DNA of 38,518 bases, taken from the IMG/VR virus record IMGVR_UViG_2671181134_000015; one strand, given 5' to 3'. Shown in pieces: positions 22,303 to 31,306 of this stretch (position 1 is the first letter of the stretch; every line of letters begins with the position of its first letter). The notes under the pieces are model-generated. The model did no database searches. It had not been told where the DNA came from and saw only the letters and a program-made list of their open reading frames with translations. The translations under genes and the position numbers were made by a program. Source of the DNA: a virus. Lineage: Duplodnaviria; Heunggongvirae; Uroviricota; Caudoviricetes.

Positions 22303-22374
22303 GGAAATTCTCCATAACCTGGTCGTTTTTCCCATGATGGCGGCAGATAACGGTGTGTCTCAAGGTGCTGAAGT

Positions 22375-22392
22375 TGTATGGCGACGGGGACA
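22375..22392. promoter_or_regulatory. TGT-N12-ACA dyad (Ogr-type late-promoter activator site) in the divergent O/P intergenic region
   Basis: Exact TGTATGGCGACGGGGACA; centred about 55-65 bp from the proposed O (22302) and P (22458) start codons. Confidence 0.4.
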
Positions 22393-22457
22393 ACACGGGC
22401 AAGTATCAGGCGGTATTGCTGAGGCTTAATCTTGCCCTGTTAATGTCAGGGGGTGCA

Positions 22458-24191
22458 ATGATCCAGGATGTCTTTATTCGTATGCGGGCGAAACAGCTTT
22501 ACTGGCAGGGGTATACCCCGGCGGATATCGCTCAGCTGATGGGAATAAACCAGAACACGATTTATTCGTGGAAAAAACGCGATGAGTGGGATGCCACCCC
22601 CCCGATCCAGCGGGTCACCCAGTCCATTGATGCACGCCTGATACAGCTCACCGCCAAACCGGATAAAAGCGGCGGTGACTTTAAGGAAATTGACCTGCTG
22701 ACGCGCCAGCTGAAAAAACTGAATGACGGTCAGGGAGAACAGGCTGTTTCCGGTAAGAAGCCCCGCAGGCGCAAACTGAAAAATCACTTCACCGAAGAGC
22801 AGATTGTCGCACTCAGGGAAAAAATCCTGCCGTCACTGGCCTGGCATCAGCGCGAATGGTACGACAACCGCCATCACCGCAACCGCATGATCCTGAAGTC
22901 GCGTCAGATTGGTGCGACCTGGTATTTTGCGCGCGAAGCACTCCTTGATGCACTGCGTGATGATGTCTCCGCCGGGTACCAGCGCAACCAGATATTTTTG
23001 TCCGCATCCCGTCGCCAGGCGTATCAGTTCAAACACTTTATTCAGCAGGCGGCGCTGGAAGTTGATGTCGAACTGAAAGGGGGTGACAAGATTGTTTTGT
23101 CTAACGGTGCAGAGCTTCACTTCCTTGGCACATCGGCAGCAACCGCTCAGTCGTATACCGGACACCTTAAATTTGATGAATTTTTCTGGGTCAGTAATTT
23201 TGTGCAGTTGCGAAAGGTGGCTGGCGCAATGGCAACCCTGAAAGGCCTTACCCGTACCTACTTTTCAACGCCATCGGGTGAAACGCATGAAGCTTATCAG
23301 TTCTGGACGGGGGATCGCTGGAACAGTGAGCGTCCCCGCTCAAAACGCACTGAATTCGATGTGTCTCATTCGAACCTGAAAGGGGGCGTGCTCTTCCCGG
23401 ATAAAACATGGCGGCAGATTGTCACCATTGAGGATGCAGTCGCGAACGGGTGGGAATATACGAGCATTGACGATATCCGGGATGAAAACACCGAAAGCGA
23501 ATTTCGTAACCTGTACATGTGCGAGTTCGTGCGTGATGGCGAGGCGGCGTTCAGTCTGAATGCGCTGATCGGCTGTGGTGTGGATGGATACGACGAATGG
23601 CCTGACTGGAAACCTTTTGCTGCGCGTCCGATGGGCGTGCGGGAAGTCTGGCTCGGGTACGACGCCAACGGCAGCAGCGGGAAGGGGGACTGCGGGGCGC
23701 TGTCGGTCTGCGTACCTCCACGGGTTACAGGCGGTCGTTTTCGTACCGTGGAGACGGTCAGGGTGCAGGGTATGGAGTTTGAACAGCAGGCGGCCCTGAT
23801 TGAGGAATACACCCAAAAATATAACGTGAAACATATCGGCATTGATGTGACCGGCGGGAACGGGGAGGGGGTTTATCAGATTGTGAAAAAGTTTTTCCCG
23901 ATGGCCGTACCGTACAACTTCAATATCGCCTCCAAGCGGGCACTGGTCATGAAAATGCTTCAGGTGGTGCGTGCCGGACGCTGGGAGTATGACCGCAGTG
24001 AACGTGACCTGATCCAGGCATTCGCATCGGTGCGAAAAATACAGACACCCGGCGGCTATATCACCTATGACACCGACCGCTCCCGCGGTGTGAGTCATGG
24101 GGATCTTGCCTGGGCAACCATGCTTGCTGTTATCAATGAGCCAATTGGTGCGGAGCGTGAGGATAATCGCGGCTTTGCAATGGAGTTCTGA
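22458..24191 (+). CDS. Terminase large (ATPase) subunit gpP-like
   Basis: N-terminal HTH LYWQGYTPADIAQLMGINQNTIYSWKK typical of gpP; about 577 aa from MIQDV with AGGGGG RBS; the ORF track begins at a GTG at 22353 that lies inside the promoter region. Confidence 0.85.
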   Translation: MIQDVFIRMRAKQLYWQGYTPADIAQLMGINQNTIYSWKKRDEWDATPPIQRVTQSIDARLIQLTAKPDKSGGDFKEIDLLTRQLKKLNDGQGEQAVSGKKPRRRKLKNHFTEEQIVALREKILPSLAWHQREWYDNRHHRNRMILKSRQIGATWYFAREALLDALRDDVSAGYQRNQIFLSASRRQAYQFKHFIQQAALEVDVELKGGDKIVLSNGAELHFLGTSAATAQSYTGHLKFDEFFWVSNFVQLRKVAGAMATLKGLTRTYFSTPSGETHEAYQFWTGDRWNSERPRSKRTEFDVSHSNLKGGVLFPDKTWRQIVTIEDAVANGWEYTSIDDIRDENTESEFRNLYMCEFVRDGEAAFSLNALIGCGVDGYDEWPDWKPFAARPMGVREVWLGYDANGSSGKGDCGALSVCVPPRVTGGRFRTVETVRVQGMEFEQQAALIEEYTQKYNVKHIGIDVTGGNGEGVYQIVKKFFPMAVPYNFNIASKRALVMKMLQVVRAGRWEYDRSERDLIQAFASVRKIQTPGGYITYDTDRSRGVSHGDLAWATMLAVINEPIGAEREDNRGFAMEF

Positions 24192-24196
24192 ACACA

Positions 24197-25240
24197 ATGA
24201 GTAAACGCAAAAAATACACCGGAAAGCGGGGGCAGGATTCGCTACACGATGCACTGAAATCAACGCCTGCACTCAGCGCATTCACCTTTGATGGGCCCTA
24301 TGAAGTCAGCCGCATGGATCTCCTGGATAACATGTCATGTGCAGATAACGGGCGCTACTTTGATACCCCCATGGACTGGAACGCTATCGCCCGTGCATCC
24401 CGTCGTGCGTCCTGGCATCAGTCGGCTTTGTACTTCAAGCGCAACGCCCTGAACGGGTGCTTTGTTCCTCACCCTCTGCTGTCCCGCCAGGCGTTTTCAG
24501 CCTTTGCGCTCGACTGGTTTGTGTTTGGTAATGCCTATCTTGAAGTGCGGCGTAACAGGCTGGGGGAACCACTCCTGCTTCGCCCGGCACTGGCAAAATA
24601 TACACGCAGGGGAAGTGACCTGGATACCTACTGGTATCTCAACGACGACGGTACGGAGTTCAGTTTCAGGAAAGGGACTGTGTGCCACGTGCTTAATCCT
24701 GATATTAATCAGGAGATCTACGGGATGCCGGAATATATCGGCGGGTTGCTGTCTGTCAGCCTGTCAAACTCAGCGGATACATTCCGCAAGCTCTACTACG
24801 ATAACGGCTCGCATGCCGGGTGTATTATCTATGTAGGCACACCTCAGGCGAATGCGGAAAGTGTCGAGGCCATTAAAAAAACGCTTACGGATTCCCGTGG
24901 TCGCGGGGCGTTTAAAAACCTGTTTCTTCATGCGCCGGGTGGTGGCAAGGATGGTGTGCAAATACTGCCGTTCCAGCAGATAACCGCAAAGGATGAATTC
25001 CTGAACATCAAGGGGAGCGCCCGCGACGATATCCTTGCTGCCCATCGTGTACCACCTCAACTGATGGGGGCAATGCCTGACGGGAATGCGGCGTTTGGTG
25101 ACGTTGAGAAAGCGGCGAGGGTGTTTTTCATCAACGAGTTGCAACCTGTCATGGAGGCCATGAAGCATGTCAATGAATGGCTTGGCGTTGAGGTGATGCG
25201 CTTTAACCCCTATGCCCTGCTTCTGGATAACGCCAGCTGA
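24197..25240 (+). CDS. Portal protein gpQ-like
   Basis: 347 aa immediately after P; size as P2 Q. Confidence 0.85.
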   Translation: MSKRKKYTGKRGQDSLHDALKSTPALSAFTFDGPYEVSRMDLLDNMSCADNGRYFDTPMDWNAIARASRRASWHQSALYFKRNALNGCFVPHPLLSRQAFSAFALDWFVFGNAYLEVRRNRLGEPLLLRPALAKYTRRGSDLDTYWYLNDDGTEFSFRKGTVCHVLNPDINQEIYGMPEYIGGLLSVSLSNSADTFRKLYYDNGSHAGCIIYVGTPQANAESVEAIKKTLTDSRGRGAFKNLFLHAPGGGKDGVQILPFQQITAKDEFLNIKGSARDDILAAHRVPPQLMGAMPDGNAAFGDVEKAARVFFINELQPVMEAMKHVNEWLGVEVMRFNPYALLLDNAS

Positions 25241-25305
25241 CGCGCTTCGCTTGTCTGCTGCTTCGCCGGGGCATAAAAAATTTATGCCCCGACTCTCCAG
25301 CTCTC

Positions 25306-25809
25306 TTAACGGAATGCGGATGGCGTTCTTCTTTGCAGCTTGCTGATAATATGCATCTTCATACTGTTTACTATCGGCAGCCATTCCCTGTCACCGTCTC
25401 CGTTGATGACCACGCGAATGGAGGTATCATCTTCCACGCGAACCCGAAGAGATACACCGTCTTTTCCGACGGAATGTAACTCCATTGCCAGGACTATGTT
25501 TACCGACTCTCCTTCATCGTGTGAGTCAACCCATGTTCTTACAGCCATCCGGAATATGTTATCTGTGTCGGTTGCAATCATATTTACCGGAAATGGCCTG
25601 AAGTCCCGATCGTTTCTGCACGGAAACCCCGTATCAACGTAACGATGATGCTCGCCGTCTTTGTCTTCCCATGTCTCTGAAGGCAATTCCAGCCACTGCT
25701 CATAAAAAGCAACCAGCTTTTCAGCCTGATTGCGCAGAATCCCTGTAACCTCCCGCCTCGCGTCCCGGCTCTTTTTGTTTGCCAGGTACAAATCGCGAAA
25801 ATGGCTCAT
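25306..25809 (-). CDS. Hypothetical protein (167 aa) in the accessory region between the portal gene and the early region
   Basis: Long ORF; no family recognised. Confidence 0.45.
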   Translation of the reverse strand: MSHFRDLYLANKKSRDARREVTGILRNQAEKLVAFYEQWLELPSETWEDKDGEHHRYVDTGFPCRNDRDFRPFPVNMIATDTDNIFRMAVRTWVDSHDEGESVNIVLAMELHSVGKDGVSLRVRVEDDTSIRVVINGDGDREWLPIVNSMKMHIISKLQRRTPSAFR

Positions 25810-26429
25810 GTCGCTCTCCTTTGGTCTGTTTATGCCAGCCTGTATTCTGCGCTCACCTCATATTGTGCGCAAGTTTTCACCCGTGAATGACTGATACTTT
25901 AAATTCTATTAACTTTATGATTTCAGTGATTTTTGTCTCTCTTTTTTATCCCGTTCGTCACGTCCGTTTCCCTCCCGATCTCCGACCTCGCCAGACGCAA
26001 TCAGACGCATTCTGACGGCCTGTTTCCCTGACCATGTTTTGATGTGGTTTTTCAAAACTGGCTTCACTGCGCGCGTATCACGCGCAATACGACCCCAAAT
26101 AAAGCAACCTGCCTTCCACCCCTCAATTCGGGCGCCCTTCCCTCGTCGCCTGCGCGCTGCAATTGCCTCGTTTTTCGTGCACCGTGCAAAGTGGCTTCAG
26201 CCCGCGCCGTTACTGGGCTGAGTGGGGATGAAACACATAAGAAAAATTGTGCAATTTCGTGCACTTTTGTGCAGTTTGAAACGGGTATCTGTTTGACACT
26301 GGTACTTACTTTGCGCTAACTTTACTCGACCAGAAATTTCAATGAATCGGATGAGGTTGTTTGTCATACGACCTCGGTTAGCTAGGTTGCCTTAATCAAA
26401 AGGCATGTTTGATACTGGAGGAGGTTAAT

Positions 26430-26465
26430 ATGAATAAAGCATTTGACGAATTTGATGGATTCTGA
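26430..26465 (+). CDS. 11-codon mini-ORF (MNKAFDEFDGF) with strong Shine-Dalgarno; candidate leader peptide
   Basis: GGAGGAGG at 26417-26424, 5 nt before ATG; followed 9 nt later by an intrinsic terminator. Confidence 0.3.
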   Translation: MNKAFDEFDGF

Positions 26466-26473
26466 ATGTGTTA

Positions 26474-26502
26474 ACCTCGATAAGGCGGAGACTGATCTCC
26501 GC
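26474..26502 (+). terminator. Intrinsic terminator (GGCGGAG-ACTGAT-CTCCGCC plus T6ATT) immediately upstream of the 26524 ORF
   Basis: Perfect 7-bp GC-rich stem with T-run; lies between the mini-ORF and the downstream gene start. Confidence 0.55.
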
Positions 26503-26523
26503 CTTTTTTATTGGTAAAGAAAT

Positions 26524-27027
26524 ATGGCTATGGACTCAGTAACGATACAAATCATTAGCAATATGATAGTCCTGTTTGGTGTCATTGTTGCTATCTGTAC
26601 AATTATCTATAACGTTCGTACGGCAAAAAAAACACAAACCGCTAATTTTTTATTTGAAAGTCGCCAGGATAAGGAATACCTGGAATCATTACATCTCCTC
26701 AGGAGAATTCATCGCTCAGGGAAATCGTTTCGTGCTTATGTTTTTCCTTGTGAAGGCGGGGCTATTACGGAAGAGGAGATGACCGAACGTCGCAAGTTTC
26801 AGTACATTCTTAACTTTTACGAGAGAGTTGCAGTTAGTATCCGTGAAGGTATTTATGATGAAAGGATGATCAAACGAACGTCCTTTACAACGATTATTAC
26901 AACTTATGATATTGCAGAACCCCTGATTAAGGCTATCAGAGAAGATACTCAATCAAAAACAGCGTACCAGGAGTTTGAATGGCTGGTAAAACGATGGAAA
27001 GCTCGTCCTCTTGATAGGGATGTGTAG
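26524..27027 (+). CDS. AT-rich gene for a 167-aa protein with one N-terminal transmembrane anchor; candidate accessory or defence effector
   Basis: Hydrophobic helix TIQIISNMIVLFGVIVAICTIIY then basic RTAKK; clearly more AT-rich than the flanking phage genes by eye; opposite orientation to the early operon; position equivalent to P2 tin/old. Confidence 0.55.
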   Translation: MAMDSVTIQIISNMIVLFGVIVAICTIIYNVRTAKKTQTANFLFESRQDKEYLESLHLLRRIHRSGKSFRAYVFPCEGGAITEEEMTERRKFQYILNFYERVAVSIREGIYDERMIKRTSFTTIITTYDIAEPLIKAIREDTQSKTAYQEFEWLVKRWKARPLDRDV

Positions 27028-27042
27028 TTTATTTCTTGCATT

Positions 27043-27076
27043 AGAGCGAGGTTATTGGTGCCTCGCTCTTTAAATT
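27043..27076 (+). terminator. Hairpin (AGAGCGAGG-N9-CCTCGCTCT) between convergent genes
   Basis: 9-bp perfect stem followed by TTTAAATT; 16 nt after the stop of the 26524-27027 gene. Confidence 0.4.
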
Positions 27077-27392
27077 ATCGAGCCGTTCTTGCGCTCATGA
27101 TGCTTTGCGCCAGCAACTGCCAGCCCTCTTTCTGTTGCCCGCGCTTGTCCTGATACCTGTTTACCTGCAAGTTTCCGTGCACCAGAATCAGATCGCCTTT
27201 TCTGTGTTTTGCCAGTTCTTCGTGCTGCTTCCCGAATGCAATAAGGTAAAGCCACATTGTGGTTGGCTGTTCTGCGCCATGGCAGGGTAGTGATACCGCC
27301 AGTTGTGCCGTTGTGACGTTGGTTCCTTTGGTTGTTCTCCTTGTGTTCGGGTCTGCTGCCAGTCGTCCCTCTGTTGCAACCTGTGTTGGCAT
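27075..27392 (-). CDS. Short SSB-like OB-fold protein (putative single-stranded DNA-binding protein)
   Basis: EGRLAADPNTRRTTKGTNVTTAQLAV and later blocks follow the SSB OB-fold pattern; lacks the acidic C-terminal tail. Confidence 0.45.
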   Translation of the reverse strand: MPTQVATEGRLAADPNTRRTTKGTNVTTAQLAVSLPCHGAEQPTTMWLYLIAFGKQHEELAKHRKGDLILVHGNLQVNRYQDKRGQQKEGWQLLAQSIMSARTAR

Positions 27393-27424: not shown

Positions 27425-27763
27425 TTAGATGGCTGGCAGATCTCCGCCAGCGCCGTAGATAAACAGAATTCGCTTCATGATTTCGCTGCGCTTACAGGCT
27501 TCGATGACTGATTTTTCCTGTTGCCATTCAGTCCTTTGCGCCAGTTCCTGTCGTTCCTTTTCCGTTGGCTTGCGATAATGCGTTATCTTGTCCGTGTACC
27601 CGTCCACAACCAGCAGCCCTTCGCGTACCATCTTCCCGGCGGCCTGATTAATGATGGTCCTTTTCACGCCCAGTTTTTCAACCAGCTCTGGTGCGCTGAA
27701 GCGTGCGTGCGTTTCCAGGTAGCGTAAAATGATTACCTTTCCGGTCATTCTGGGTGTCTTCAT
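27425..27763 (-). CDS. Putative winged-helix DNA-binding protein
   Basis: Helix-turn-helix-like segment SAPELVEKLGVKRTIINQAAGKMVREGLL. Confidence 0.4.
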   Translation of the reverse strand: MKTPRMTGKVIILRYLETHARFSAPELVEKLGVKRTIINQAAGKMVREGLLVVDGYTDKITHYRKPTEKERQELAQRTEWQQEKSVIEACKRSEIMKRILFIYGAGGDLPAI

Positions 27764-27969
27764 TTGGCGGCTCCTTCGTTGTTCCGGCGTTCGCGGAGTT
27801 CGGTCAGTGCTGCCAGTAAATTTTCCCACCATGTTTCTTCCACAACCGGATTTCGTCGTGAAAGCAGCTGCTGCGCCGACTCAATCATTTTCGTAAGCTC
27901 TTTGTCGCTGATCCTCCTGATGTCGTTCATGGTGTGCTCCTTCGGTTTGCTGTTTCTGGTCATGTTCAT
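27760..27969 (-). CDS. Hypothetical small protein (69 aa)
   Basis: ORF in the early operon, start-stop overlaps with neighbours. Confidence 0.35.
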   Translation of the reverse strand: MNMTRNSKPKEHTMNDIRRISDKELTKMIESAQQLLSRRNPVVEETWWENLLAALTELRERRNNEGAAK

Positions 27970-27978
27970 GGTCTTTTG

Positions 27979-28383
27979 TTACCTGCGTGATTGCCTGCTG
28001 GCGGCCGAATGCACATAGCGGACAATTGCCGCTTTTCGGTTAACGACGGCCAGCGTTCTTGCCAGTTCTTCGTTGAGTTTTCTGGTCTGTTTTTCGTGGT
28101 ATGCCTGCATGATTTTTCCTACGGGAGTCAGTGGTTCAGGCTCTGATATGGCGCGACGAGGGCGCACGGCAACGATGAATGCGCTTCTGTCGGTGTTGAT
28201 TCTTGCAGTCAGGATGTCGGTCATAACGGTGTCTGTGCTGCGATCGGGACTGGCGATCGTGATTTCCAGTTCGTCGCCTGGCTGCGGTCGAACACTGACG
28301 CCGCTCAGTGTCAGTGCCGGAATGCGTGCGTTCATGATGGTGCTGAAATCATGGCGCTGGAGTACGCAATGGAATCGTGTCAT
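27979..28383 (-). CDS. Hypothetical protein downstream of the replication gene
   Basis: 134-aa ORF overlapping the A stop. Confidence 0.45.
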   Translation of the reverse strand: MTRFHCVLQRHDFSTIMNARIPALTLSGVSVRPQPGDELEITIASPDRSTDTVMTDILTARINTDRSAFIVAVRPRRAISEPEPLTPVGKIMQAYHEKQTRKLNEELARTLAVVNRKAAIVRYVHSAASRQSRR

Positions 28384-30893
28384 GGGTTAACCTCCGGTTG
28401 ATCTGCTGCCACCAGGCTTCGTGATTTTTCATCCCAGTGCACAATCCGCCCGTCAGGCAGGCGAACGCGTGCACCTCTGTGTACGGAAAGTGCTGCGCCA
28501 CTGTGTAGCTCCTCGCCCGTCGTGCTCAGTGCCGACTTGATTACGGTGGTGGTGACGTCAGTCAGCGGCAATGCTGTACGCACATGTATGACGTCATCGG
28601 GCGTGGTGGGGCCGCCGGTTTTCACGGTTTTTGTGTCAGATGGCGCATCTTTCAGCTGCCTGGTGAGTTGTTTTCTCTCTGTGGGGGTCAGTGACCTTAA
28701 CCATTCGCTCAAATCACCTTCCGGGATGGTCAGTTTTTGTTCTTTCCTGGTTTCCGGTGGTGGGGTTTTACCCTCTCCGGTGTCTGTTTTTTCATCATGG
28801 GGACAGTTATTGCCACGAGTCCAAGGTGCGGCAAAGCCGCACTCAACGTCAAAACCCTCGTCCGTGCTGTTGTCGGCTTTCGCTTCTTTTCTGACCAGTT
28901 TCCACTCGTCCGGATGGGTACAGATGGTGTAGCGCTCGCCGAGCGACGGGGCGCAAATTCCGTAGATGCGCTGCGGGAATTCGCCGTAGTCGTTGGCCTC
29001 ATCTGCGGTTTCGTATGCGGTGCGGACCAGGTACGCGTTGCGGGGAATGAGCACGCCACCCTGGCGGGTGATGTAGGTGGCAAAACACCCCACGTCAGCA
29101 GCGGCCAGAATGGCGTCAATGTCGTCATGATCCAGGCGCTTCGGTGATGCCGGGTTGCGCTCCATCTGTCCGGCAAGGCGGCGGAGTTCACGCCACACCT
29201 GGCGGGGCGGGATGCCGAAGAACTGGAACTGACGGATGCGATGGAGACTCGCCCAGGCAATGGCGTTTTCCACGGTTTCGGCCATGGTTTTCCCTGATTC
29301 CTCATCGGCGTAAGGTTTGCCGGTTTTCGGGTCATTGTCGTGAAAGGCGCTGGCGTCCAGGTTCTTGCCGATATAGGTTGCGATGTAACTTGCCGGTGTG
29401 CCTTTTGCCGGGTCGATTTTTTCGCACTTGAAGCGCGGCGAAATATCATCCCCCAGTTCTGCGCGATCTGATTTGACTGCCGCGTCACGCATGATTGCAA
29501 TGATGCGTTCTTCATTGTCCGGGGAGGTGAATACCAGCATGTGCCAGTGCGGTGTGCCGTCATGGTGTGGCTCAACGGTGCGCACCCCGTACCAGCTCAG
29601 GCCTTCTTTGTTGAGTTTTTTTCTTACAGCTGCAAAGACGTCGTACACCAGATAATCGCTGGCATCGCGCACGGTGGCACCGTTGTATTTCGGGTTCAGG
29701 CTGCCGTCCTCGTTTACGCTGTGAAAGCGGGAAGGGCAGGTCACTGTCACGAAGAACGCGGAGTCACCACGCGATTCGGCGACCTGTTCCATCCCTCTGA
29801 CGCAGGCCATCATCTCGTTGCGGCGGTTGCGCGGATTCCCCAGCCCTGACCAGTACACGTCCTCCAGACTCAGGCGTTCACCGTCTTCGTTTTCAATGTC
29901 CCAGCTTTTGAGAAAATCACGGGTGCGTTGGCGTTTCTCCCGGAATTCCTGGAGTGACTCATGGCTGATGTAGGGGGATGCCCTGCGCGATACTCTTCCG
30001 GCGGCACGCAGTAATTCCTCCCGCCAGAGATCGGCGAGGTGGCGCAGCTGGTTGTTCCACCAGGTGGCGCAGGTGATGCGCATTACTGCACCCGGTACCC
30101 GTTCAGGGTCTGGTGCCGTGCGGCGGTCACGTCTGAGCTCGAGTGACGGCCAGCATGGTGGGGTCACGCCCAGTTTTAACGCCATGCGCGCCAGCTGCTG
30201 GTAAGTCAGCAACCAGGTAAACAGGTTATCGTCGCCTTTTCCTGTCCGCTCAGTAACTTCATCACATATGCGTTCCAGTTCGGTGGAAAATGCCGCCGCT
30301 GTTAGTGTGGCAAGGCGCTGAATTTGATCACGGTTGAGTTGTGGCAGCATGAGTAATTCATCAAGGCGATGGCGTGCTGCGGTGGCTTTGAATGCCGTCG
30401 TGGCGAAGCATTCATTCACCTGTTCGATGCGTTTCAGGCGTGTGCGCAGTCCACGGCGAACAAAGTTATCAGCCACGTGTGTATTGTTGTTTTTCACGCC
30501 TTCATGGCGGGCGCTTTGCTGTTTGCGGTTTAAACGCGCCAGATCACGAATGAGCGCGTTGCCAAGAAACGAGGGCAGGGCGCGAAGTTCTGCCATGGCT
30601 TCCGATACCACTGTGGGCGGATTTTCGCGTTTGTGTCTCGCCAGTTTTTCCAGTCTGATCCGGCGCTCTTCGTCGTGGTGAAGATGCGAATTAATTCGCT
30701 TGCCTTCGTCTGTGTTTGTCAGGAAGTCGACGGTCTCTTCATCCAGTCTTGCATCAATGCGAATGTCTTCGTTGATGTAGCTCTGAATGGCCTGGCGTAA
30801 TGCGGTTGGTTGCGCTCTGCCGAACGTTTCAGGATCGATAACCGGTAGCGGGGCGTTCCACGGGTACGCCAGTTGTGCGTTATGGTCGCTCAT
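28380..30893 (-). CDS. Replication initiation endonuclease gpA-like (rolling-circle HUH family)
   Basis: 837 aa; GTPHWHMLVF HUH-type motif; ATGA overlap with the upstream gene. Confidence 0.85.
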   Translation of the reverse strand: MSDHNAQLAYPWNAPLPVIDPETFGRAQPTALRQAIQSYINEDIRIDARLDEETVDFLTNTDEGKRINSHLHHDEERRIRLEKLARHKRENPPTVVSEAMAELRALPSFLGNALIRDLARLNRKQQSARHEGVKNNNTHVADNFVRRGLRTRLKRIEQVNECFATTAFKATAARHRLDELLMLPQLNRDQIQRLATLTAAAFSTELERICDEVTERTGKGDDNLFTWLLTYQQLARMALKLGVTPPCWPSLELRRDRRTAPDPERVPGAVMRITCATWWNNQLRHLADLWREELLRAAGRVSRRASPYISHESLQEFREKRQRTRDFLKSWDIENEDGERLSLEDVYWSGLGNPRNRRNEMMACVRGMEQVAESRGDSAFFVTVTCPSRFHSVNEDGSLNPKYNGATVRDASDYLVYDVFAAVRKKLNKEGLSWYGVRTVEPHHDGTPHWHMLVFTSPDNEERIIAIMRDAAVKSDRAELGDDISPRFKCEKIDPAKGTPASYIATYIGKNLDASAFHDNDPKTGKPYADEESGKTMAETVENAIAWASLHRIRQFQFFGIPPRQVWRELRRLAGQMERNPASPKRLDHDDIDAILAAADVGCFATYITRQGGVLIPRNAYLVRTAYETADEANDYGEFPQRIYGICAPSLGERYTICTHPDEWKLVRKEAKADNSTDEGFDVECGFAAPWTRGNNCPHDEKTDTGEGKTPPPETRKEQKLTIPEGDLSEWLRSLTPTERKQLTRQLKDAPSDTKTVKTGGPTTPDDVIHVRTALPLTDVTTTVIKSALSTTGEELHSGAALSVHRGARVRLPDGRIVHWDEKSRSLVAADQPEVNP

Positions 30894-31306
30894 GCGTCGC
30901 ACTCCCCGGCAGTCGCCGCCTGAAACGCCGCGCGGTACAGCATGAGAAGGCGCTGGTATTCGCCGATAAAACCTTCTGCGGTGTATATACCTTTCACGGC
31001 CACGCTGTGGTTTGTCATTTCCAGAACCAGCGCCATCTCTGATGACGACCAGCTGATGGTGGTGCTGTCGGTGCCGTTGATGTGAAATAAACCCAGTCCA
31101 TCACCATCACCTTTCACGTCCACGCGGTAACGACCGTCAACGGTGAAGGAGAAATCCCCGGATGTGGTGATGCTGCGGGCAGCCTGTTTACAGGCGCGGC
31201 GGTAATAGTCGTGCCAGTCGTTCAGGCGGGAAGCCAGCCGGGGATCCACTGCCCACATCCAGTTAAAAAAATCCTGAATATCTGAAAGTCCCTTAACGCT
31301 CTTCAT
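30890..31306 (-). CDS. Hypothetical protein immediately upstream of gpA
   Basis: 138-aa ORF translationally coupled to A. Confidence 0.45.
   Translation of the reverse strand: MKSVKGLSDIQDFFNWMWAVDPRLASRLNDWHDYYRRACKQAARSITTSGDFSFTVDGRYRVDVKGDGDGLGLFHINGTDSTTISWSSSEMALVLEMTNHSVAVKGIYTAEGFIGEYQRLLMLYRAAFQAATAGECDA

Follow-up and report, generated by a model that had tools for sequence, protein, structure and literature searches.

The interval between gpA and gpQ is, as a whole, the cos-proximal hotspot of P2-like phages, and its anti-phage role is experimentally supported (Rousset et al. 2022, PMC9122126). Rousset et al. 2022 (PMC9122126) also record cargo there that is unrelated to defence, for example cytolethal distending toxin and partition systems, and genes of unknown function in the P4 and P2 hotspots are often defensive (PMC13586616). 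The old and tin genes of P2 are optional, swappable cargo between A and Q, next to cos, and both lie on the A side of it. On the Q side, the stop codon of Q is 167 nt from the cos cut in P2, the corresponding distance in 186 being 176 nt, and only a terminator (tQ in P2, tW in 186) occupies the interval. Single-protein defence is also known in the form of Tai (tail assembly inhibition), which is found in prophages, PICIs and P4-like satellites (He et al. 2024, PMC11364771). Tai genes are small, solo and highly divergent; they occupy accessory sites, commonly close to cos or immediately ahead of the packaging module, and the action of their products is not catalytic but consists in binding to a phage protein (PMC11364771).

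Here we describe ORF167, a 167-aa gene on the minus strand (25306-25809) of a P2-family E. coli prophage which, like old and tin, is optional, swappable cargo between A and Q next to cos, but which lies on the Q side. The window referred to throughout is the whole stretch of DNA that was analysed, 38,518 nucleotides in length. A reading of the letters that preceded this analysis (the original prediction) had singled the ORF out as extra cargo, on the premise that the cohesive end site of P2 is immediately beside Q; the P2 layout given above bears this premise out. The gpA-gpQ hotspot itself was already known, optional genes within it are expected and do not contradict current understanding, and a sister of ORF167 has been catalogued as ‘hypothetical’ in the hotspot table of Rousset et al. 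2022 (PMC9122126). What is new here is the exact extent of the ORF167 cassette, the Q side of cos as a recurrent slot for one protein family, a confident model of its fold, and the spread of the family across other sites in temperate phages.

The Q-to-cos interval of a P88-like prophage

The prophage is closest to the P88-like (Xuanwuvirus) group. Its terminase and portal DNA is ~72-74% identical to that of P88, Citrobacter phage Shae_phiSM and vB_EcoM-569R5, and E. coli JNEC-KY208 carries a prophage that is near-identical to it. The portal gene, a homologue of P2 Q, occupies 24197-25240 on the plus strand (Pfam Phage_portal, E = 2.4e-18; RefSeq likewise calls it phage portal protein in the near-identical prophage). 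It is preceded by the large terminase gene (22353-24191), and it faces the gene for the gpO scaffold, which is the P2 order in reverse. ORF167, on the minus strand, is convergent with the portal gene, as had been predicted. Beyond it come a non-coding block of 714 bp (25810-26523, no strand), the DUF4760 gene on the plus strand (26524-27027) and then, all on the minus strand, the SSB gene (27075-27392), a MarR/Ren-like gene (27425-27832), two small ORFs (27760-27969 and 27979-28383) and the gene for replication endonuclease A (28380-30902). ORF167 is located between gene A and portal gene Q, inside the hotspot as it has been defined. It had been suggested that it may be a second hotspot occupant. 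A second occupant it is, on the Q side of cos, the other being the DUF4760 gene on the A side; it does not mark a new hotspot, as the whole gpA-gpQ interval had already been defined as one (PMC9122126).

A candidate cos 19-mer, GGCGACGAGGGAAGGGCGC (reverse complement), was found at 26132-26150 on the minus strand in a MAFFT junction alignment with the cos 19-mers of P2 and 186. It is identical to the P2 19-mer at 13/19 positions, which is not significant alone since 10 sites in the window score at least 13. Comparison of the P2 and 186 cos junctions with the window by BLAST gave nothing significant either, and because of these two results the site was assigned by collinearity only. The flanking motifs, GTTTTTCGTGCAC and a triple repeat TGTGCAA-N5-GTGCAC-N5-TGCAG (26172-26274, unstranded), are collinear with GTTTTAATGCAC and the triple ATGCA repeats in the cos flanks of P2 and 186. 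In the MAFFT junction alignment the consensus GTTTT(A/T)(A/C)(T/G)TGCAC is seen ~19 nt beyond the candidate cos, and the triple (A/G)TGCA repeat (TGTGCAATTTCGTGCACTTTTGTGCAG) is at 26246-26274. These motifs may be recognition sites for terminase, and they are conserved in all five relatives aligned. The candidate cos block is non-coding and is conserved in all relatives aligned, whatever cargo is present on either side of it.

The collinear MAFFT alignment and the flank motifs together put cos, provisionally, at about 26132-26150. Neither the P88_4B11 record nor that of phage 500465-2 begins at cos, so neither fixes the cut site. With the end of Q at 25240 and the start of the candidate cos at 26132, ORF167 occupies most of the interval. 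The earlier placing of the ORF between Q and a cos-like region is correct relative to this candidate, cos itself being a probable site and not a proven one.

ORF167 as optional cargo

The minus-strand ORF that had been predicted at 25306-25809 is confirmed by the ORF list, with an ATG start, and a Shine-Dalgarno sequence, AGGAGA (25815-25820, minus strand), can be read 5 nt before the ATG. At the matching site of a 77%-identical homologue (L022, from another E. coli prophage) the sequence is GAGGAGA. Over the 167 codons compared between these two genes, dN is 0.116 and dS is 0.735, giving a dN/dS of 0.157, and because of this ratio ORF167 is judged from the codon comparison to be a genuine gene under purifying selection. 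The same ORF is annotated in RefSeq as a hypothetical protein (WP_471724009.1). The GC content of the gene is 49.0%, a little below the 53.5% of the portal gene and the window average of 53.8%.

It could be argued that ORF167 is a decaying remnant or a mis-called ORF, since the curated families give it no match and an internally deleted copy exists in two genomes. However, the dN/dS of 0.157 is sustained over 167 codons at a dS of 0.73, 11 genomes carry the frame uninterrupted and at 99.4% identity or more, 111 homologous clusters conserve its length, and the structure model described below is confident. A remnant or mis-call is therefore scarcely credible; the cluster count, the structure model and the dN/dS effectively exclude a spurious or decaying ORF.

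It is clear from comparison of the slot in relatives that ORF167 is optional accessory cargo. There are no genes between Q and cos in P2, 186, E. coli SW071611, Shae_phiSM, P88_4B11 and many sister prophages. In SW071611, Shae_phiSM and P88_4B11 the module at the end of the portal gene (see below) runs straight into the cos block, so that the genes that flank the insert are adjacent in relatives lacking it, as in the definition of a moron. The cargo segment, which comprises ORF167 and 172 bp upstream of it, was delimited to 25314-25981 (unstranded) from pairwise breakpoints against SW071611 and a five-way alignment; its ~670 bp stand in place of ~107 bp in this gene-less sister. ORF167 is present at a minimum of 99.4% identity in 11 of 5426 complete E. 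coli genomes, compared with 1142 that carry the module, and an internally deleted remnant of it is found in 2 further genomes, KY174 and Bongo. Empty, deleted and alternative states of the slot are all seen among otherwise collinear prophages. The claim that the ORF is extra cargo is upheld by these comparisons: the gene is far from being conserved in all P2-like phages with an assigned packaging or structural role, as it is found in 11/5426 complete E. coli genomes and is missing from relatives with the same backbone. The evidence as a whole supports a horizontally mobile single-gene cassette, probably autonomous, that encodes a binding-type protein. At ~0.7 kb, with its own upstream region, the cassette is precisely delimited and is a cheaply testable candidate.

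E. coli JNEC-KY177 (NZ_AP045173.1) has two copies of the ORF167 locus, at about 3,276,931 and about 4,452,400, which seem to belong to two P2-like prophages.

On its left the cargo slot is bounded by a 66-bp module (25237-25302, unstranded) which contains the Q stop codon and a hairpin and is near-invariant across relatives. The module is present in the 1142/5426 E. coli genomes at 90-100% identity, and at 95% or more in all but 9 of them. It is identical in Shae_phiSM and P88_4B11 despite portal and terminase DNA that is only ~72-74% identical; for the portal genes next to the module the figure is ~70-74%. The module could owe such conservation to a role as an anchor for recombination when cargo is swapped, as part of an RNA 3' end or as a binding site for a protein.

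The hairpin within the module was recovered by a repeat search as a perfect 11-bp stem with a 3-nt loop (25267-25291, unstranded; arms 25267-25277 and 25281-25291, 100% complementary). It lies 15 nt past the stop codon of ORF167 and 27 nt past that of Q. A perfect hairpin with a 10-bp stem (25268-25290) and no U-run had been predicted to separate the two genes; the hairpin is real and does lack a U-run, but its stem is one base pair longer. Its folding z-score is -4.9 on the plus strand and -6.0 on the minus strand, with 0/200 shuffles folding as well. The stem is followed by ACTCTCC on the plus strand and by GCGAAGC on the minus strand, where P2 and 186 have TTTTTT and TTTTT, and the terminator scan, with a U-run absent on both strands, did not call this hairpin. 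The position equivalent to tQ of P2 and tW of 186 is occupied, then, by a G+C-rich stem-loop but not by a U-run. The hairpin is the sole stem-loop downstream of ORF167, and it is part of the backbone module, not of the insert.

Upstream of ORF167 there is a candidate sigma-70-like promoter, TTGCGC-N17-CAGAAT (25844-25872, minus strand). It would be weak, as it agrees with the consensus at 7/12 positions and falls below the threshold of the promoter scan, which called no minus-strand promoter upstream of the gene. The L022 counterpart is TTGCGC-N17-GAAAAT; when it is set against the site in the window, the differences are in the spacer and the hexamers are kept. The gene of the 569R5 type (see below) has a similarly weak TTGCCG-N17-CAAAAT upstream. 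A search by eye for an Ogr-type late-promoter dyad, TGT-N12-ACA, upstream of ORF167 found only GGT-N12-ACA at the wrong distance. Just upstream of the putative -35 there is a palindrome, TTCAC-GG-GTGAA (TTCACGGGTGAA on the minus strand, 25862-25880), which is fully conserved in L022. It could be an operator, and is too short for significance alone.

The PHROG 5091 family and its possible role

The ORF had been described as having no recognisable motifs. This is true of Pfam, NCBIfam and PADLOC, none of which gave a match, but not of PHROG: residues 1-165 of the protein align with positions 2-162 of the 164 in the phrog_5091 profile at E = 1e-40 (annotation: function unknown), a full-length match. 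When 64 family members were searched singly, none matched Pfam, and 63/64 had no match in PADLOC, the remaining one giving E = 0.0091. Neither PHROG 5091 nor the protein accessions are mentioned in any paper found.

A second type of the family is represented by the 174-aa gene beside the portal gene of vB_EcoM-569R5. Its protein is 24% identical to that of ORF167 (24-27% for the type) with a pairwise E = 1e-10, and it matches phrog_5091 at E = 1.4e-67; the homology between the two emerged from positional comparison only. This is the sister type that stands as ‘hypothetical’ in the hotspot table of Rousset et al. 2022. Like ORF167, the 174-aa type (WP_000236495.1 in ST131 EC958) is located in the Q-to-cos interval, convergent with the portal gene, and the two have a common motif, Y-E-x-x-L-E-L-P-S-x-T-W-x-D-x-x-G-x-x-x-x-Y-V. 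They differ in their insertion points, ORF167 being on the cos side of the 66-bp module and the 174-aa type between the Q stop codon and the module. Because the two types flank the module in this way, deeply diverged relatives are found a few tens of bp apart in one slot. Furthermore, the 174-aa type brings its own canonical bidirectional terminator, unlike ORF167. It is also much the commoner of the two, being present in 397/5426 complete E. coli genomes, that of ST131 EC958 included, as compared with 11 for ORF167. Either type is thus found in (397 + 11) of the 1142 module-bearing E. coli genomes, roughly 36%, and ~64% are without a family member.

In two loci (L002 4445-4870, in E. coli JNEC-KY174, and L022 5505-5818) the portal stop codon is separated from the 66-bp module by 315-430 bp of additional DNA that carries no annotation. 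This is a third insertion point in the Q-to-cos slot, and the ORF167-type gene beside it is intact in L022 and internally deleted in KY174.

An exhaustive profile search recovered 111 clusters at 50% identity, nearly all of 150-185 aa. Positions Y36, L40, L42, W47, G52, Y57, T92 and K151 are near-invariant. The members that could be named are from Enterobacterales only (E. coli, Salmonella, Citrobacter, Trabulsiella, Providencia, Morganella, Xenorhabdus, Serratia and Hafnia), and their clusters are very small; a locus search of representative genomes with a narrow alignment gave Trabulsiella and Salmonella only. Among 50,697 phage records, tblastn with ORF167 gave no match at 1e-5, and three family queries gave 4 matches, all in P88-like temperate phages and none in virulent ones.

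In P2-like elements the family gene and the portal gene converge directly, as is the case at all 42 IMG/VR loci and at L027 (Salmonella) and L022 (E. coli). In a Trabulsiella prophage (L025) the family gene adjoins gpA instead. More distant members are found between a lambdoid Q antiterminator and holin (L018), between lysis genes and HNH (L015 and L016), in Arc/antirepressor regions (L014, L019 and L020) and between baseplate genes, inside the baseplate operon (L017). One further group (L011-L013) is in a chromosomal islet among metabolic genes. Family genes are solo in every context examined, with no recurring partner gene. PHROG 5091 is a fast-diverging family whose members turn up again and again in accessory positions of unrelated temperate phages.

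The structure of the ORF167 protein was predicted with AlphaFold2 from the 64-sequence alignment (pLDDT 90.4, pTM 0.85). In the model an N-terminal helix of 37 residues is followed by a short beta-hairpin, which bears the conserved motif, then by an antiparallel sheet of four strands and a C-terminal helix of 20 residues. It resembles the FP domains of PI31 (score 7.5) and Fbxo7 (7.1), actin-capping protein beta (7.0) and, at 5.5-5.9, type III secretion chaperones, the sequence identity to these structural matches being 5-12%. The FP (Fbxo7/PI31) domain and the actin-capping subunits are helix-sheet-helix dimerisation modules, but they are eukaryotic, their biology is unrelated to that of ORF167, and the ORF167 family has no Pfam match to the FP domain or capping families. 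The likeness suggested by the model would be one of fold only, and says just ‘binding module’. A Foldseek search of the BFVD viral structures with the model gave nothing below E = 0.037, and the family profile had no match among PDB sequences. There is no recognisable effector domain. The protein is mildly acidic (pI 6.1; family median 5.2), is soluble by prediction and has no hydrophobic segment. Taken with the model, ORF167 is probably a soluble, non-enzymatic binding protein without catalytic or membrane features. A DNA mimic of the Ocr/ArdA kind was considered and dropped, the acidity being only mild at these pI values.

The constant adjacency to the portal gene in P88-like phages, with cos nearby, raises the question of whether ORF167 might be an accessory of packaging or virion assembly that assists or regulates terminase or portal, and some members are indeed inside baseplate gene clusters. 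However, P2, 186, Shae_phiSM and P88_4B11 manage without the gene, as do ~64% of module-bearing E. coli prophages, and the position of members differs within otherwise similar tail modules (L014 as against L017). Nor is there any match to a virion-protein fold in BFVD, where the best E-value was 0.037. An accessory role of this sort is thus very improbable, and a core role in packaging is effectively excluded.

A different proposal is that ORF167 is a lysogenic-conversion or housekeeping gene, encoding a chaperone or adaptor for host physiology, prophage maintenance or induction. The fold is like that of type III secretion chaperones, frataxin/CyaY and DUF2170 regulators, one clade is chromosomal and sits amid metabolic genes, and, as noted above, the gpA-gpQ interval also bears non-defence cargo (PMC9122126). 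Against this, a conserved partner gene or operon is absent in every context examined, and the sporadic distribution with fast turnover is typical of conflict genes. We consider this proposal unlikely.

Several features point to a role in conflict between phages or between phage and host: the location in an anti-phage hotspot, the restriction to temperate elements, an orientation that in P2-like phages is against the late operon, and rapid diversification of the family combined with purifying selection within types. On this analysis ORF167 is a reasonable candidate for a phage-versus-phage conflict gene. The reading that we favour, though tentatively and as something short of an even chance, is that ORF167 is a moron in the Q side of the gpA-gpQ hotspot and encodes a phage-conflict protein which is expressed from the prophage and acts by binding. 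A weak promoter of its own would drive transcription of the gene towards Q as far as the shared hairpin of the module, where it would stop. The protein, likely a dimer, would bind another protein and so act stoichiometrically; when made by the prophage, it might block one of the steps that a superinfecting phage goes through, as the Tin protein of P2 and the Tai proteins do. Alternatively, it might neutralise a host defence.

The exclusion favoured here, in which a prophage-expressed protein would bind a protein of the incoming phage, follows the logic of P2 Tin and of Tai, despite the rejection of homology to Tin, to Orf97 of 186 and to TaiEcA. The hhalign probability was 0.3% for Tin and 0.1% for Orf97, and for TaiEcA (phi80 orf63, 204 aa), compared with the 64-sequence family profile, it was 0.1% with 1 aligned column. 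The Tai comparison covered TaiEcA only, one of a set of Tai variants; the others are 22-43% identical to each other. Tai and PHROG 5091 genes are alike in being small, solo and highly divergent genes at accessory sites of temperate phages. No partner resembling anti-Tai is seen adjacent to ORF167.

The main rival to exclusion is counter-defence, in which ORF167 would be a small, soluble, mildly acidic inhibitor of an immune protein of the host or of a competitor, made on infection or induction. It is favoured by those members of the family that are embedded in late operons: in L017, L014 and L018 the gene is co-oriented inside late or tail operons. This suggests expression in the lytic cycle, and a role in counter-defence or assembly would account for it no less well than exclusion. 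However, in P2-like phages the gene always opposes the late operon and has its own upstream region, and virulent phages, in which anti-defence genes are common, are without a family member as judged by the three tblastn queries of 50,697 records. Furthermore, the acidity is too modest for a DNA mimic, and similarity to AcrIIA11 is at the level of noise. Counter-defence appears somewhat doubtful, though it is to be taken more seriously than a housekeeping function.

For the family as a whole, it is possible, and we put this a little more cautiously than the favoured reading of ORF167 itself, that PHROG 5091 is an unrecognised single-protein phage-conflict system, serving either anti-phage exclusion or anti-defence, which acts stoichiometrically through a dimeric fold like that of the FP domain and capping proteins and has repeatedly colonised the Q side of cos. 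If such a phenotype is true, this would be a new single-gene system present in ~7.5% of complete E. coli genomes ((397 + 11)/5426), those of pandemic ST131 included, and the Q side of cos would be a usable cargo slot of the P2 family alongside the A-side position of old and that of tin.

Genes on the A side of cos

The DUF4760 gene, common among P88-like prophages including that of EC958, is not an obligate neighbour of ORF167-family genes. Its protein, also of 167 aa, has an N-terminal hydrophobic segment, and the GC content of the gene is 39.7% as compared with 53.8% for the window. It belongs to PHROG 2284, has no match in PADLOC or NCBIfam, and has essentially no literature. Ahead of it, in the region 26418-26523, a mini-ORF of 11 codons (26431-26466, MNKAFDEFDGF*) follows a strong GGAGGAGG ribosome-binding site, and is itself followed by a canonical terminator (26482-26505) with a T-run, 18 nt ahead of the DUF4760 start codon. 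The mini-ORF and terminator are kept in Shae_phiSM and 569R5, and from their arrangement they look like a leader-peptide attenuator for DUF4760. A search of Rfam over 25150-26600 gave no match above the gathering score; an isrP-like match at 26441-26509 was sub-threshold, with 27.6 bits against a gathering score of 45.

Further along, the gene at 27425-27832 adjoins SSB; its product is a MarR-type winged-helix protein with a match (E = 1.9e-28) to PHROG 142, ‘Ren-like exclusion protein’. The relatives conserve this gene as part of their backbone.
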